Source of the DNA: Chloroflexota bacterium
GTDB lineage: Bacteria; Chloroflexota; Dehalococcoidia; UBA2979
Assembly: GCA_027593235.1 (NCBI GenBank)
Contig: JAQCIU010000003.1
Span: 32,001 to 96,000, forward strand
Direction: 5' to 3'
Length of the DNA stretch: 64,000 bases
Shown: positions 10,071 through 29,850 of the stretch, piece by piece
Layout: each line of letters opens with the position of its first letter
How positions within the stretch are numbered: position 1 is the stretch's first letter
The notes under the pieces: model-generated
What the model saw: the letters and a program-made list of their open reading frames with translations, nothing else
The model's database searches: none
What the model was told of the DNA's origin: nothing
Position numbers and translations under genes: made by a program

Positions 10071-11167
10071 CCGGCCATGCCCTGGTTCGGTCGTGCGTTG
10101 GCGCGTGCCAGGGTGGTATCCAGCAGCCGCTCCATCTCGTCGACGAAGCGGTTCCAGCCGAAGCGTTCGCGGGCCAGCGTGCGTCCGCGTCGCCCGAGAT
10201 CGGCGGCAGCGCCGGGTTCGGAGAGCAGACGACGGGCGGCGCCGGCAATGGCGGCGGGATCCTCGGGAACGACGAGCAGGCCGTTCCCCTCCTGTTCGAT
10301 CACCTCGGTCAGTCCGCCGATCGCGGAGGCGATCACCGGTCGCAGCAGTTGTCCACCGAGGATGGCGATCGCGCAGGACGAGACCGGCACCCGCGCCGGT
10401 ACGACGACCAGGCTCACCTGGTTGACGATCGCGGGCAGTCGCGAGGTTGCGACGTTCCCTCGGAATGAGACGGCCTGACCGAGTCCGAGGGCAGCGGCCT
10501 GAGCCTGCAGCGCGTCGCGCTCGGGGCCATCGCCGACGATCACGAGTTCCGCGGTGCGGATGCGCTCGCGGATCTCGGCGAGCGCGTCGATCGCGACGTC
10601 GAAGCCGGAGTCACGGGTGAGCGGTCCCACGCAGAGCAGCGTCGGCCGCTTGAGGAGGCGCGGTCCGGGCGCCAGTTCGGTCAGTGGCAGCCCGGCACGG
10701 ACGACCGTCGTTCGCGCCGCACTGTCGCGCGCGACCGCGCGAAGCTGGCCGGCCAGGGTTTCGGTGTCGACCACAATCGCGGCGGCGTACTGGAGCAACG
10801 CGCCTTCGATGTTGCCGTCCTCGTGCGTGTTGTTCGCGAGCGGGCCGTGAATCGAGACGGCGAGCGGGCGTCCATCGCGGCGCGCGACCTCGAGGGCGAG
10901 CGCGGAGAGCGGGCCGCCTGTCTCGACGAGATCGATGTCCGGGGATTCGGCGACGGGGGCCGGGAGCGCGGTGGCGTCCGTCCCGACGGTTGCGTCGACG
11001 CGGTGGATCGACAGTCGTTCACTGACGATGGCGTCCGCCGGTCGATCGCTCCGCGGGGCGACGAGGGTGACGGTGTGGCCGCGAGCGGCCAGTGCCGGGG
11101 CCAGACGCGCGGCGACGTCATCGAGGTCGTCGAGGTCGAACTGGCCGGACCAGTAGCGGATACGCAC
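10067..11167 (-). CDS. GT4-family glycosyltransferase-like protein (degenerate motifs)
   Basis: GHTVTLVA, IVGDGPER, PVIASAIGGLTEVI...GLLV; GTG start after GAAGGA. Confidence 0.75.
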   Translation of the reverse strand: MRIRYWSGQFDLDDLDDVAARLAPALAARGHTVTLVAPRSDRPADAIVSERLSIHRVDATVGTDATALPAPVAESPDIDLVETGGPLSALALEVARRDGRPLAVSIHGPLANNTHEDGNIEGALLQYAAAIVVDTETLAGQLRAVARDSAARTTVVRAGLPLTELAPGPRLLKRPTLLCVGPLTRDSGFDVAIDALAEIRERIRTAELVIVGDGPERDALQAQAAALGLGQAVSFRGNVATSRLPAIVNQVSLVVVPARVPVSSCAIAILGGQLLRPVIASAIGGLTEVIEQEGNGLLVVPEDPAAIAGAARRLLSEPGAAADLGRRGRTLARERFGWNRFVDEMERLLDTTLARANARPNQGMAG

Positions 11168-26592: not shown

Positions 26593-27006
26593 ATGTCCAA
26601 GCGACCGATGCCGAAGTTCTTCGAGCCCGACACGCAGGCGTTCTGGGACGCGACGAACGACGAGCAGCTCGTCTACCAGCAGTGCAAGGCATGCAACGAG
26701 GTGGTGTTCACGCCTCGGGCGCACTGCACCAGCTGCGGCAGTGCTGACCTAGAACAGAAGACGTCCAAGGGGGATGGGACGGTGTACACCTACTCGGTGG
26801 TGCGCCAGAACCGGAACCCGGCGTTCGCCGACCTCGGTGCTTACGCGCTGGCCTACATCGACCTCGACGAGGGCTTCCGCATGCTCTCGAACGTGGTCGG
26901 GGTGGCGAACCCACAGACCGACGTGAAGGTCGGGCAGCGGGTAAAGGTGAAGTTCGAGAAGCAGGATGAGGGCGAGTACCTGATCCCGCTGTTCGAGCCG
27001 ATCTAG
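26593..27006 (+). CDS. DUF35 Zn-ribbon/OB-fold partner protein
   Basis: CKAC...PRAHCTSC, GTVYTYSVV, LDEGFRMLSNV. Confidence 0.9.
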   Translation: MSKRPMPKFFEPDTQAFWDATNDEQLVYQQCKACNEVVFTPRAHCTSCGSADLEQKTSKGDGTVYTYSVVRQNRNPAFADLGAYALAYIDLDEGFRMLSNVVGVANPQTDVKVGQRVKVKFEKQDEGEYLIPLFEPI

Positions 27007-27032
27007 CCTCGGAAGCACCGCCAGCAGATCGA

Positions 27033-27059
27033 AGCGGCCCCCTCATCGAGGGGGCCGCT
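27033..27059. terminator. Perfect 12-bp hairpin after the thiolase/DUF35 operon
   Basis: agcggccccctc-atc-gagggggccgct; weak U-tail. Confidence 0.65.
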
Positions 27060-27122
27060 GTCGTGCCGGGCGGGCGTCGTCGACTCGTACACTGCGAAGT
27101 GAAGCGACGTGGAGGCGAGCTG

Positions 27123-27398
27123 ATGCTGTACGAATACAAGCACACCGGTCGGCGGCGACGCGGTTGCCTCGAGACGTTCGAACTCCGCCGCGGCGTCTCC
27201 GCCCGCGACGATGACGCTCCTTGCCCAGAGTGCGGAACCCTCGAAACCGAGCGCCTCAAGTTCCAGTCCTTTGCCGTCGCTACCCCCTTCGACGCCGCTG
27301 CCGCGCGGGCGCCACGGCCACCCAGACGCGGCCCGTACGACGACTTCACGCGGGAGAATGTCGCCGACGATCGCGATAGCGACGTCGCGCACCTTTAG
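27123..27398 (+). CDS. FmdB-family zinc-ribbon-like small protein
   Basis: GGAGG RBS; MLYEYKH...C.ETFE...APCPECG..ETER. Confidence 0.7.
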   Translation: MLYEYKHTGRRRRGCLETFELRRGVSARDDDAPCPECGTLETERLKFQSFAVATPFDAAAARAPRPPRRGPYDDFTRENVADDRDSDVAHL

Positions 27399-27488
27399 GG
27401 CGCGAGGTGTGAGCGTTGTTGCTGCGTAGCCCCCCCGAGGGGGCAGTTTCCCGCCTGTCCGTCCTGGGGACTGGGGAGCGTGTTCTGT

Positions 27489-27519
27489 CAGTTGACAATT
27501 AGTCAACTGGGACTATGCT
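27489..27519 (+). promoter_or_regulatory. Sigma70-type promoter with overlapping palindromic operator
   Basis: TTGACA (27492-97), 16 nt, TATGCT (27514-19); inverted repeat CAGTTGAC-N5-GTCAACTG at 27489-27509. Confidence 0.7.
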
Positions 27520-27568
27520 CACCGGCATCAACAGCGGCAAGGATGCCCGCACTGAGAGGATTCCGGCC

Positions 27569-27679
27569 GTGAAGTATGAGCGACCGCAGATCGTGCGCAA
27601 CCGCGTGATCGGTCAGATGATTCAGGAGACCTCCCTCGTCATCTGCACCTTCCCGGATCAGCTGAACTGCCAGTTCTAG
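27569..27679 (+). CDS. 36-aa putative RiPP (lasso-type) precursor MKYERPQIVRNRVIGQMIQETSLVICTFPDQLNCQF
   Basis: RBS GAGAGGA 8 nt before GTG; own promoter and terminator; GC3-rich codons; YxxPxI and G-x5-T leader motifs. Confidence 0.7.
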   Translation: MKYERPQIVRNRVIGQMIQETSLVICTFPDQLNCQF

Positions 27680-27696
27680 ACCGCGCATCGTTCGGC

Positions 27697-27726
27697 AAAC
27701 GGCCCCCTCATCGAGGGGGCCGTTTT
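27697..27726. terminator. Intrinsic terminator, likely bidirectional, between the peptide ORF and the S9 peptidase
   Basis: aaacggccccctc-atc-gagggggccgtttt. Confidence 0.8.
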
Positions 27727-27774
27727 CGTTGGAGGCGCATTCGTTGGCGCGCCAGGACCGGGCATGGCGCGCAG

Positions 27775-29745
27775 CTACAGCGTGCGCTTCAACCAATCGA
27801 GGACGTGCTCGTGGTAGGAGCGGACCATTGCCGGGTGACCGGCGCGGACGAAGCCGTGGTAGCCACCGGGGAACCGCACGAATTCGACCTGTTTCCCGAG
27901 GCGTTTGAGCGCGGTGTAGTACTCCTCCGACTGTGAGATCGGGCAGCGGATATCCGCTTCGCCGTGGAGCAGCAGCACCGGCGTCTTCACGTTCGGGGCA
28001 TAGGTGATCGGCGAGTGGGCGACGTAGGCCTCGAAGTTCTCGAGGGGCGTGCCGCCCCATTGCTGTTCGCCGAACTGCACGGAGATGTCGGACTGGCCGT
28101 ACATCGAGACGAGGTTGGTGACGGGGGCCGCGACGATCGCCGTCTTGAACCGATCGGTGTGGCCGACGGTCCACGAGGTCATGAAACCGCCGTACGAGTA
28201 GCCGTGAATCGCGAGGCGGCTCGCGTCGACGTAGTTGCGGCGGAGGACGCGGTCGACGGCGGCCATCTGATCCTCGTAGTCCTCGCCACCCCAGTCCTCG
28301 AAGACGCGCGAGACGAAGTCGCGGCCGTAGGTCGATGACCCGCGAGGGTTGATGTAGAGCACGAGGTAGCCGGCGCCGGCGAGCATCTGGTGCAGCGGCA
28401 TCCAGCCGTTGCCGAAGAAGCCGTTGGGGCCGCCGTGAACCTCGAGGACCAGCGGGTACTTCTTCTTGCGATCGAAGTCGGGCGGGAAGGTCAGCCAGCA
28501 CTCGATGTCGAGGCCGCCGCGCTGGAAGGTGAAGCGCTCGGTCTTGCCGACCCCGTAGCCCTCGAGGTACCCGGTGCTCACGGCGCTGACGGCGTGCTCG
28601 CTCTCATCCTCGATATCGACGGCGGTCACCTCGTTGGGGCGGGTGAGGCGGGAGTTGAGGACGGCGGCGCGGGTGGCGTCAGCGGAGAGCGAGAGGCCGG
28701 CACCCAGCTCCTCGGTGGCGCGGAGTGGCTCAACCGTGGAGCCGCTGGGGGTGGTGCTGTAGAGGCCGGTGGAGCCGTGCCGTTCGGCCTGGAAGGTGAT
28801 GCGTCGCGCACCCCAGTGCATCGGCGGCGGGTCGGCGAGCGGGATGTTGGCGCCGGTCGGCTGCAGCGAGTCGTCGGTGATCTGCTTTGGCGCGGCGCCG
28901 TCCTCGAGGGCGACGGTCCAGAGGTAGGACTGCGCGTACGCGTATTCCTGGCCACCCGAGACGAAGGCAAGGCGGTCGCCCTGGGGTGACCAGGCGATCG
29001 GGCTGAGGCCGGAGAGGTTGCGGACGATCCGCCGTACCGCGCCACCGCCCGAGGGCACCACGCACAGCTCCAGCTTGCCCGGCGTGCGTCGCTCGCGCTG
29101 CGCGGAACGATCGCCGGAAGCGAAGGCGATCGATGCGCCGTCCGGCGACGGCGTTGGCGAGTAGCAGTCGTAGTCGCCGCGGGTGAGCTGCTTCGCTTCG
29201 CCGCTGTCGAGGTCGACCCGGAAGAGCTGGCGGTGGGTGTCGCCGCGCCAGCCGAGGCCATCCGCACGGAAGTAGATGCGGTTGACCCGCTTCGCCCTCG
29301 GGATCGACGGGTTGGCGGTAGGGGCGGGCGCGTCCGGATCGACATCGACGGCGAGGACGAGCGCGCCGCCGTTCGGGAGCCAGGCGAGCGAACGGATCGG
29401 CCCGGCAAGGCTGGTGAGCTGACGTGCTTCCCCGCCGTCGATCGGGAGCAGCCAGACCTGGGCGTTCGCAGTGGAGCCGTCGTCATCGCGGCGGCTGCGG
29501 AGGAAGGCGACGGTCTTGCCGTGCGGTGACCAGGTCGGGCGCGAGTCGAGTGGGCCGGCGGTGAGCTGGCGTGCGGTGCCGCCCTCGAAGGGGACGAGCT
29601 CGAGCACGGAGCTGCGCTGGAGGGTGGTGGGATCGACCGCGCCGCGGACGTAGGCGATGGCGCCGCCGTCCGGGCTGATCGCCGGCTCGGCGACGGTGTC
29701 GAGGTCGACGAGCATGCTGGGGTCAATCGGGCGGGTGGCGGGCAT
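27775..29745 (-). CDS. S9 family (prolyl oligopeptidase/acylaminoacyl peptidase) serine peptidase
   Basis: PD40 propeller repeats, VHGGP, GYSYGG nucleophile, HGEADIRC, GGYHG. Confidence 0.92.
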   Translation of the reverse strand: MPATRPIDPSMLVDLDTVAEPAISPDGGAIAYVRGAVDPTTLQRSSVLELVPFEGGTARQLTAGPLDSRPTWSPHGKTVAFLRSRRDDDGSTANAQVWLLPIDGGEARQLTSLAGPIRSLAWLPNGGALVLAVDVDPDAPAPTANPSIPRAKRVNRIYFRADGLGWRGDTHRQLFRVDLDSGEAKQLTRGDYDCYSPTPSPDGASIAFASGDRSAQRERRTPGKLELCVVPSGGGAVRRIVRNLSGLSPIAWSPQGDRLAFVSGGQEYAYAQSYLWTVALEDGAAPKQITDDSLQPTGANIPLADPPPMHWGARRITFQAERHGSTGLYSTTPSGSTVEPLRATEELGAGLSLSADATRAAVLNSRLTRPNEVTAVDIEDESEHAVSAVSTGYLEGYGVGKTERFTFQRGGLDIECWLTFPPDFDRKKKYPLVLEVHGGPNGFFGNGWMPLHQMLAGAGYLVLYINPRGSSTYGRDFVSRVFEDWGGEDYEDQMAAVDRVLRRNYVDASRLAIHGYSYGGFMTSWTVGHTDRFKTAIVAAPVTNLVSMYGQSDISVQFGEQQWGGTPLENFEAYVAHSPITYAPNVKTPVLLLHGEADIRCPISQSEEYYTALKRLGKQVEFVRFPGGYHGFVRAGHPAMVRSYHEHVLDWLKRTL

Positions 29746-29850
29746 GGTGCTGGCTCCTCGGTCGTCGGTCGTCGCGCGCCGGGGCATGCTAGCGGAACGA
29801 GAGGCGCGATCGTCAGGTCGCGACGAGACAACCGGGAGGCGAAGAGGGCG

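Follow-up and report, generated by a model that had tools for sequence, protein, structure and literature searches.

The DNA analysed here, a 64-kb stretch hereafter called the window, belongs to an uncultured Chloroflexota metagenome-assembled genome (3.39 Mb in 78 contigs, 89.7% complete) that we designate G000. Within a 376-nucleotide (nt) intergenic gap it holds a 36-codon open reading frame (ORF) on the forward strand, GTG 27569 to TAG 27679, whose product is (M/V)KYERPQIVRNRVIGQMIQETSLVICTFPDQLNCQF. Upstream on the same strand lies a Zn_ribbon_8 ORF (27063-27398), itself preceded by a thiolase gene, and downstream a convergent reverse-strand ORF for an S9 prolyl oligopeptidase (27775-29787) has its stop at 27775. 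The ORF in the gap is a genuine small gene, transcribed on its own, and belongs to a family of short peptides that combine one conserved leader with hypervariable cores, and our leading interpretation, held with somewhat less than even confidence, is that it encodes an orphan precursor of a RiPP (ribosomally synthesized, post-translationally modified peptide), dependent on a RiPP recognition element (RRE), that is a Chloroflexota relative of the linear polyphosphorylated peptide (LPP) system and is likely modified at Ser22.

A separately transcribed small gene

A consensus scan of positions 27000-28200 yielded a single promoter-like site (10/12 match; shuffle mean 0.1) and four terminator-like sites against 0.6 in shuffles, one of them a hairpin at 27704-27719 with a T run behind it; in the sequence itself, the arms of the terminator stem can be read at 27698-27709 and 27713-27724 (Table 1). 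An earlier note on this DNA had described the same GTG-initiated frame with its promoter, GAGAGGA ribosome-binding site and intrinsic terminator, and both the sequence and the scan bear that description out. The gene's own promoter and terminator likewise support the view, taken in that note, of a stand-alone transcription unit for a RiPP-precursor-like peptide, and at this locus no maturase gene is adjacent, as it had also held. An in-frame ATG at 27515 is the start used by the ORF listing and by one public gene call (P0023), through which the product is present in the protein database as a 54-residue protein. The GTG is preferred because ATG 27515 falls within the -10 hexamer and because the alignment of the family favours GTG.

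Searches with tblastn using the window peptide recovered more short frames with the same N-terminus in G000 and in a congener. Six-frame genome translations were searched with a 23-position hidden Markov model profile of the leader, which detected 11 dispersed copies in G000, on contigs C32, C35, C15 (the window), C36, C5, C66, C42, C7, C20, C57 and C38, and also matched, more weakly, a longer peptide on contig C26. The ten further copies have E values from 5e-13 to 0.39, and because they carry the same leader in the same genome, the window ORF is more than a chance frame. Among 99 genomes of the order, matches at E ≤ 1e-3 occur in four, namely G000 (11), its congeners G003 (9) and G001 (3), and G016 (1), which represents another genus of the same order; the paralogous short ORFs for which the earlier note had proposed to search are thus found in G000 and in both congeners. 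The same search of the order found no family copy in a third congener, a genome of 1.8 Mb, and 400 other genomes sampled from the class had no copy at E ≤ 1e-4.

We regard the ORF as coding because of its codon-position GC content, the synonymous changes between positional orthologues and the conserved terminators. Across the 381 in-frame codons of the 11 G000 copies, GC content at the three codon positions is 0.62, 0.48 and 0.80, compared with 0.60, 0.59 and 0.62 when the 99 nt upstream are read in that phase. For two of the copies G003 has a positional orthologue, one between genes for GNAT and CtaG proteins and the other between greA and a UbiA-family gene. When the DNA of these pairs is aligned, the leader codons match up with third-position changes, while little of the flanking sequence aligns. 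Compensatory changes preserve one terminator hairpin, and the cores differ, with the two Cys kept and the acidic residue at no fixed place. Of the 23 family copies that could be evaluated, 17 are followed by a hairpin with a T-rich tail and a stem of 10 bp or more, as compared with 105 of 2000 random 90-mers, and start codon, frame and length are retained in the 24 genomic copies. Furthermore, a metagenome contig about 94% identical to the window differs from it at 20 positions of the 69-nt spacer (27405-27473) that precedes the promoter, at one position in the 5' untranslated region (UTR) and at two in 89 nt of the ORF; the resulting changes, K2E and N11S, both fall at variable leader positions. 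In a related contig, the substitution 27518 C>G preserves the TAnnnT form of the -10 element.

A non-coding or regulatory RNA unit in which the ORF arose by chance would fit a short unit with its own promoter and terminator, and a conserved 5' motif whose GGA may lie in a loop. Conservation at the amino-acid level with synonymous third-position changes, the coding-type signature of GC at the third codon position, and the start, frame and length retained in 24 copies argue against such a unit, however. The same direction is indicated by Rfam, which gave no family here (the sole match near the ORF is to a viral element, E 0.36) or at nine other copies, and by a 5'UTR that folds no better than its shuffles (z = -0.21). 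We therefore consider an RNA unit highly improbable. Elsewhere in those nine loci the Rfam matches are tRNAs, tRNA-Sec and the TPP riboswitch only. Among these flanking features are a tRNA-Sec gene (72.7 bits) at L012 2112-2204 and a TPP riboswitch at L013 3780-3882, upstream of a thiamine-related transport operon.

Table 1. Elements of the small transcription unit, in window coordinates.
Feature	Positions	Strand	Source or count
Promoter-like site: TTGACA 27492-27497, 16-nt spacer, TATGCT 27514-27519	27492-27519	+	Consensus scan
Palindrome TTGAC-AATTA-GTCAA over the -35 element, candidate operator	27492-27506		Genome-wide pattern count
Conserved 5'UTR motif GGCAAGGATGCC (GGC / AAGGAY / GCC), 21 nt before the start	27536-27547	+	1 in window, 0.03 expected
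Shine-Dalgarno-like GAGAGGA, 8 nt 5' of GTG	27554-27560	+	Sequence reading
Precursor-like ORF, 36 codons and stop	27569-27679	+	
Leader, codons 1-22, MKYERPQIVRNRVIGQMIQETS, last residue the near-invariant Ser22	27569-27634	+	
Variable core LVICTFPDQLNCQF, with Cys26 and Cys34 (C-x7-C)	27635-27676	+	
Intrinsic terminator: 12-bp stem AACGGCCCCCTC / GAGGGGGCCGTT, loop ATC, then TTCGTT	27698-27730	+	

The 5'UTR motif recurs in the family. If up to three mismatches are allowed, 12 of the 24 family copies have GGCA[AGC]GGA[CGT]GCC 16-23 nt ahead of the start, a count that leaves out the C32 match (4 nt before the start) and the precursor of a lasso-peptide cluster on C26, which has no motif. In its strict form it has seven sites in G000, of which three are upstream of family ORFs and four inside long coding frames. 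Folded as a 3-bp hairpin, the motif could carry GGA in its loop, roughly 20 nt ahead of the GGA-containing Shine-Dalgarno site. Targets of CsrA have a two-site layout, which this pair of GGA sites resembles by analogy, and a gene for CsrA (PF02599) was present in all five genomes checked, in G000 at C32 44032-44181. A nine-codon upstream frame starting within the 5'UTR motif of the window gene was considered and rejected, as other copies read ACG there, not ATG.

The neighbouring S9 prolyl oligopeptidase was also rejected as a processing enzyme, since no peptidase recurs beside other family copies. Contigs X5 and X8 of two other metagenome runs come from a relative that is more distant; between the flanking genes they have 211 other letters in place of the window's 375 (27391-27767), so that at this site the relative has either another insert or no copy.

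One leader and hypervariable cores

Searching 1.84 billion representative proteins with the leader profile returned 73 proteins at E ≤ 1e-3, nearly all of them 26-48 residues long and of the same architecture; the ten members that were looked up are unnamed or 'hypothetical'. Seven family peptides had no match in Pfam or NCBIfam at E ≤ 10, a limited literature search found no published description of this peptide family, and a protein atlas offered weak leads only (scores ≤ 0.87). The family is absent from the searched libraries and, among the genomes searched, almost confined to one uncultured Chloroflexota genus. It is multi-copy and diverges fast, and it represents a short-gene family missed by gene callers and family libraries.

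Across 78 non-identical small members, the 22-residue leader follows the consensus M-x-Y-x-[KR]-P-x-[IV]-E-R-x2-[LV]-[VI]-[GA]-x-[ML]-x4-S. Tyr at position 3, Pro at position 6 and Met or Leu at position 17 occur in all 78, Gly or Ala at position 15 in 76, Arg at position 10 in 75 and Val or Ile at position 8 in 68, and a Ser at model positions 21-23 is present in 77 of the 78. The window peptide has Tyr3, Pro6 and Ile8, that is, the RRE-binding motif YxxPx(L/V/I). The YxxPx(L/I) motif, of the kind bound by PqqD-type RREs, that had been noted in this single peptide is thus borne out across the family, with Tyr and Pro in every member. Of the G-x5-T motif that had been proposed alongside it, the first residue stands, as Gly or Ala 15, and the second does not, with Thr directly before the conserved Ser in 6 of the 77 members that have this Ser. 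The leader contains no hydrophobic signal-peptide stretch.

What follows the Ser is hypervariable. In the 77 members with Ser the core has a median length of 13 residues (range 2-26) and reaches at least 15 residues in 30; it contains two Cys in 51, four in 4, one in 12 and none in 10 members. Of the 67 cores with Cys, 59 have the first of them 1-4 residues past the Ser. In composition the cores are 12.1% Cys, 10% Asp, 9.6% Gly, 9.6% Pro, 2.9% Ser and 3.0% Thr, and a sub-type C-x3-GG-x-W-x-G-x2-3-C recurs across several species. The pair of Cys that the earlier note had emphasized is accordingly a family feature in number and not in position. More generally, the conservation among homologues that it had put forward as a test holds for Tyr and Pro (78/78) and for Gly/Ala 15 (76/78), and does not hold for Thr, for Asp/Glu or for the places of the Cys.

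Three longer relatives from the protein database, P0010 (197 residues), P0019 (132 residues) and P0070 (96 residues), consist of two to four tandem units, each with a leader-like stretch YxxPxIxRR(E/D)P and then a segment whose end reads SDVHxK(D/E)N(I/V)xPVxW. By their sequences they look like multi-core precursors of a related peptide type. A search of the genome contigs with the multi-unit relative P0019 found no related locus.

Enzyme clusters of relatives and of the window's own genome

Leaders related to that of the family occur within enzyme clusters of relatives. In G016, a cluster at L053 8414-16224 (contig C56) encodes two leader-bearing peptides between acyltransferase and HprK-related kinase genes, along with an S24/S26-type peptidase ORF, NTP_transf_5 (PF14907), PqqD and an acyl-CoA ligase; a lasso-cyclase-like Asn-synthase homologue without the Cys2 nucleophile is found in its vicinity, and no B2 peptidase was found in that genome. 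Both G016 precursors contain x-S-P-x3-[D/E] followed by only two or three residues, from which a seven-residue head-to-side-chain ring, not threadable, could be formed. The congeners G001 and G003 encode PqqD, NTP_transf_5 and an S24/S26-type peptidase in a string, and genes for an HprK-related kinase and an acyltransferase lie opposite. The S24-type peptidase is conserved among G016, G001 and G003; those of G001 and G003 score 25.2 and 23.0 bits against Pfam Peptidase_S24 (cut-off 23.3), have archaeal-type signal peptidase I as their best NCBIfam match (E 0.002 and 0.006), and a PDB sequence search with this peptidase gave no match.

Similarly, four genomes from three sister genera (G115, G113, G082 and G024; loci L148, L149, L150 and L152) share a conserved cluster of genes for NTP_transf_5, a precursor, an HprK-related kinase, an ABC-2 permease with ATPase, and PqqD. 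The leader of this precursor, MTYExPxIV..SVVGQL..GSG..., aligns with the family leader, and its core is rich in Gly, Arg, Asn and Tyr, without an acidic residue. Neither a B2 peptidase nor a cyclase was found at these loci, which appear from their sequences to be LPP-like clusters outside Bacillota. Of the order's 99 genomes, 17 have PqqD, including all four that bear copies and 13 of the other 95, a co-occurrence that is not an independent test since the genomes are kin.

An RRE-type RiPP precursor matured in trans, as the earlier note had proposed, is the best-supported reading of the window gene. The fallback offered there, by which the peptide would form a new subclass or serve as substrate for some other RRE-dependent system, comes close to the reading we favour. 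The leader is homologous to those of precursors in RRE/kinase clusters. Homology and gene contexts are observed directly, and the chemical steps that we infer from them would be as follows. Tyr3, Pro6 and Ile8 would dock into the RRE, an HprK-like kinase would phosphorylate the near-invariant Ser22, and the nucleotidyltransferase may extend the phosphate; the peptidase would cut off the leader, and in the acidic peptide so released, rich in Pro and Gly, the two Cys would pair as a disulfide to close a loop. A single set of enzymes would act in trans on the many dispersed precursors.

Several observations weigh against this LPP-related scheme. The similarity of the family precursors to the cluster-borne ones is moderate (E 4e-6 to 2.3 in 13 loci searched), and the enzymes score far below curated cut-offs, the kinases at 28-58 bits against 200 for HprK_rel_A and the peptidases at 16-18 bits against 51.85 for sigpep_I_arch. 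The family leader, with ...IER..LVG.M....S after its first motif, matches the LPP consensus YxxPxVLxHQxIxFETxxS, as given in the available part of its published description (PMC13381572), only at YxxPx[VI] and the downstream Ser; no Cys pair is described there for LPP cores, and the conserved Ser could instead mark the cleavage site. In the G000 assembly no NTP_transf_5 (PF14907) was found, and a tblastn search of it with the congeners' PqqD, kinase, peptidase and acyltransferase yielded no orthologue of any of them. The only RRE and HprK-like kinase found in G000 are a lasso-type pair on C26, and therefore either this machinery is borrowed, or a cognate module lies in the unassembled 10% or so of the genome, or the copies are unserved.

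Finally, none of 22 dispersed copies in G000, G001 and G003 lies beside a RiPP enzyme except that on C57. This Cys-free copy (…LSHADLADGAQAS) is divergent from a lasso-cyclase-like Asn-synthase homologue at L020 4676-6781, which among NCBIfam families matches NF033535 best (262 bits, short of the cut-off of 525) and which is 44% identical to the G016 homologue. Because its N-terminus reads MAGFGFAV, the encoded protein is without the Cys2 nucleophile, and no B2 or RRE gene was found beside it. The word TGACAATT stands upstream of both the window ORF and the C57 copy (C57 6589), which account for two of its nine occurrences in G000. On C12, at about 10180-10791 of the reverse strand, a 228-codon frame matches only the first 200 residues of the G016 acyl-CoA ligase at 48% identity and may be a truncated remnant.

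The C26 pair belongs to a complete-looking lasso cluster (L022 3172-9078, about 35456-41362 of C26, reverse strand) with genes for a 46-residue precursor, a methyltransferase, PqqD, a B2 peptidase, an HprK-like protein, a cyclase and an MFS protein, and it is here that the search of the genome for cyclase, B2 and PqqD suggested by the earlier note found all three. Its B2 scores 66.6 bits against NF033537 (cut-off 33), its cyclase matches Asn_synthase without a GATase match, and its PqqD is the only one above the cut-off in the G000 assembly. The C26 precursor (MYERPTVTRLGLLADLTS..., TTG start) aligns with the family leader and, if cut before Ala19, has Tyr at -17 and Thr at -2.

Lasso peptides include disulfide-bearing classes and can have cores that begin with Leu. 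The window ORF might be a true lasso precursor with a ring-tail disulfide, cut after Ser22, closed by a Leu1-Asp8 ring and matured in trans by the C26 B1, B2 and C proteins, with or without the kinase. The cluster and the alignment of its precursor favour this account, as do Thr21-Ser22 and the Asp at core position 8 of the window peptide itself. The nearest named protein-atlas clusters are lasso leader families, although with scores of 0.80-0.83 they serve as a lead only. A rare TTGAC-N-GTCAA palindrome provides a further link: the pattern TTGAC-N0-7-GTCAA has 10 sites in the 3.39 Mb of G000, of which two lie over the -35 elements of the window ORF and of the C26 lasso precursor (C26 41455). 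If it acts as an operator, as we infer, its presence at both genes hints at co-regulation and keeps the idea of borrowed machinery alive.

At the level of the family, however, the class III-like lasso reading advanced in the earlier note fails. Thr at -2, on which it relied, is confined to the 6 of 77 members given above. An acceptor comparable to Asp8 is no more frequent than expected, with Asp or Glu at core positions 7-9 in 31 of 77 members after a cut behind Ser, compared with 34.2 +/- 4.1 in shuffled cores; other cuts give 38 of 77 (Ser at -2) and 34 of 77 (Ser as residue 1). The cores are short, the Tyr of the window peptide would be at -20 and not at -17 as in the C26 precursor, and the positional orthologues keep the Cys pair and not a placed acid. 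Furthermore, a search for B2 (NF033537) in G000, G001, G002, G003 and G016, which are 86-90% complete, found it on C26 of G000 only, despite nine family copies in G003 and three in G001. We thus hold a lasso product to be improbable. A macrolactam for the whole family, with a ring closed on the acidic residue 3-6 positions after the Ser, was rejected, as no single cut fits the dispersed copies.

Other enzyme classes were surveyed in the copy-bearing genomes G000, G001 and G003. The earlier note had named a radical SAM enzyme as an alternative partner, which has no support: no SPASM domain (PF13186) was found in any of the three, and 8 of 14 control genomes matched; G000 has eight Radical_SAM matches, none near a family copy. 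YcaO is present in G003 only among the three, and LanC (PF05147) gave no match in any of them, in a search that was silent in all 14 controls as well and so carries no weight.

It is also conceivable, if somewhat unlikely, that the family encodes unmodified small proteins or peptides, in which the N-terminus is a docking or export motif for a non-RiPP partner and the Cys loop is functional in itself, for example in a signal or competition peptide. The copies are scattered among housekeeping genes without a nearby enzyme, the LPP-like module is absent from the assembly of the copy-richest genome, and each copy has its own promoter, shared 5'UTR motif and terminator, like an independently regulated small gene. 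The core sub-type shared between species is likewise suggestive of a folded or recognised loop. On the other hand, the invariant N-terminal Y-x-x-P-x-[IV] is an RRE-bound motif, according to the available part of PMC13381572, homologous leaders lie inside RRE/kinase clusters of relatives, a signal-peptide stretch is lacking, and every copy-bearing genome has a PqqD gene. We place the RRE-dependent precursor ahead of an unmodified peptide.

Comparison with LPP, lasso and prochlorosin systems

In LPP precursors, as described in the available part of Popov et al. 2026 (PMC13381572), a conserved N-terminus with YxxP...S is combined with variable C-termini; they are polyphosphorylated at Ser3 of the core, and are reported there as restricted to Bacillota. 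The family described here resembles them in its YxxPx[V/I] N-terminus, its variable C-termini and its conserved Ser, which stands 19 residues after the Tyr, against 18 in LPP (Tyr at -16, Ser at +3); in both cases the lineage has lasso clusters as well. As in LPP and in paeninodin-type tailoring, the clusters of relatives hold PqqD, an HprK-like kinase, NTP_transf_5 and either an ABC transporter or an S24/S26-type peptidase. Unlike LPP as described in the same source, the family is hosted by Chloroflexota, has peptides of 26-48 rather than 35-200 residues, carries a Cys pair in most cores, and is dispersed over 11 sites in G000 rather than placed in a cluster, in a genome where the module was not found.

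With lasso precursors, including those of the paeninodin/pseudomycoidin type, the family shares the YxxPx[L/I/V] motif and the presence of a PqqD-type B1 in the genome. According to the available part of Zyubko et al. 2019 (PMC6993621), an HprK-type kinase phosphorylates a Ser of the pseudomycoidin precursor and an NTP transferase is needed to place hexose on that phosphate; HprK-type kinases and PsmN-like NTP transferases act on the Ser of such precursors. A Leu1-Asp8 ring can be drawn for the window peptide alone. The family differs from lasso precursors in having no conserved Thr at -2 or acid at core positions 7-9, in cores mostly too short for a ring and a threaded tail, and in the B2 that was not found in the copy-bearing congeners.

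If the link to RRE and HprK-like kinase is true, LPP-type peptides extend beyond Bacillota, and a lasso-type leader can be reused for a dispersed library of hypervariable precursors. Such reuse would bear on how RREs discriminate between YxxP pathways, which is posed as an open question in the available part of PMC13381572. The family also offers natural sets for studying substrate tolerance, in the form of one leader with many Cys-loop cores and of positional orthologues with different cores. For genome mining it carries a caution: a single precursor can fit the lasso template, with Thr at -2 and Asp8, by chance, and conservation among paralogues provides the test.

In the prochlorosins, one ProcM enzyme acts on many dispersed ProcA precursors that have a Nif11-like leader, and the formation of lanthionine needs Ser or Thr. 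The present family differs from them in its YxxP leader and in cores with only about 3% Ser and 3% Thr. It resembles them in having many scattered precursors per genome, one conserved leader and hypervariable Cys-containing cores, which implies one maturation system acting in trans. A system of this kind, shared by a genus of uncultured aquatic Chloroflexota, can be envisaged, in which a single module of RRE, HprK-type kinase, nucleotidyltransferase and signal-peptidase-like protein, or else a lasso B1 with its kinase, would mature about a dozen dispersed, fast-diverging disulfide-loop peptides per genome, the invariant Ser beside the first Cys would be tagged, and a shared GGA-hairpin in the 5'UTR would provide control, possibly by CsrA. 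Taken jointly, these propositions are doubtful. If they do hold, a phospho-RiPP system of the LPP kind would be described for the first time outside Bacillota, and for the first time with orphan precursors served in trans.

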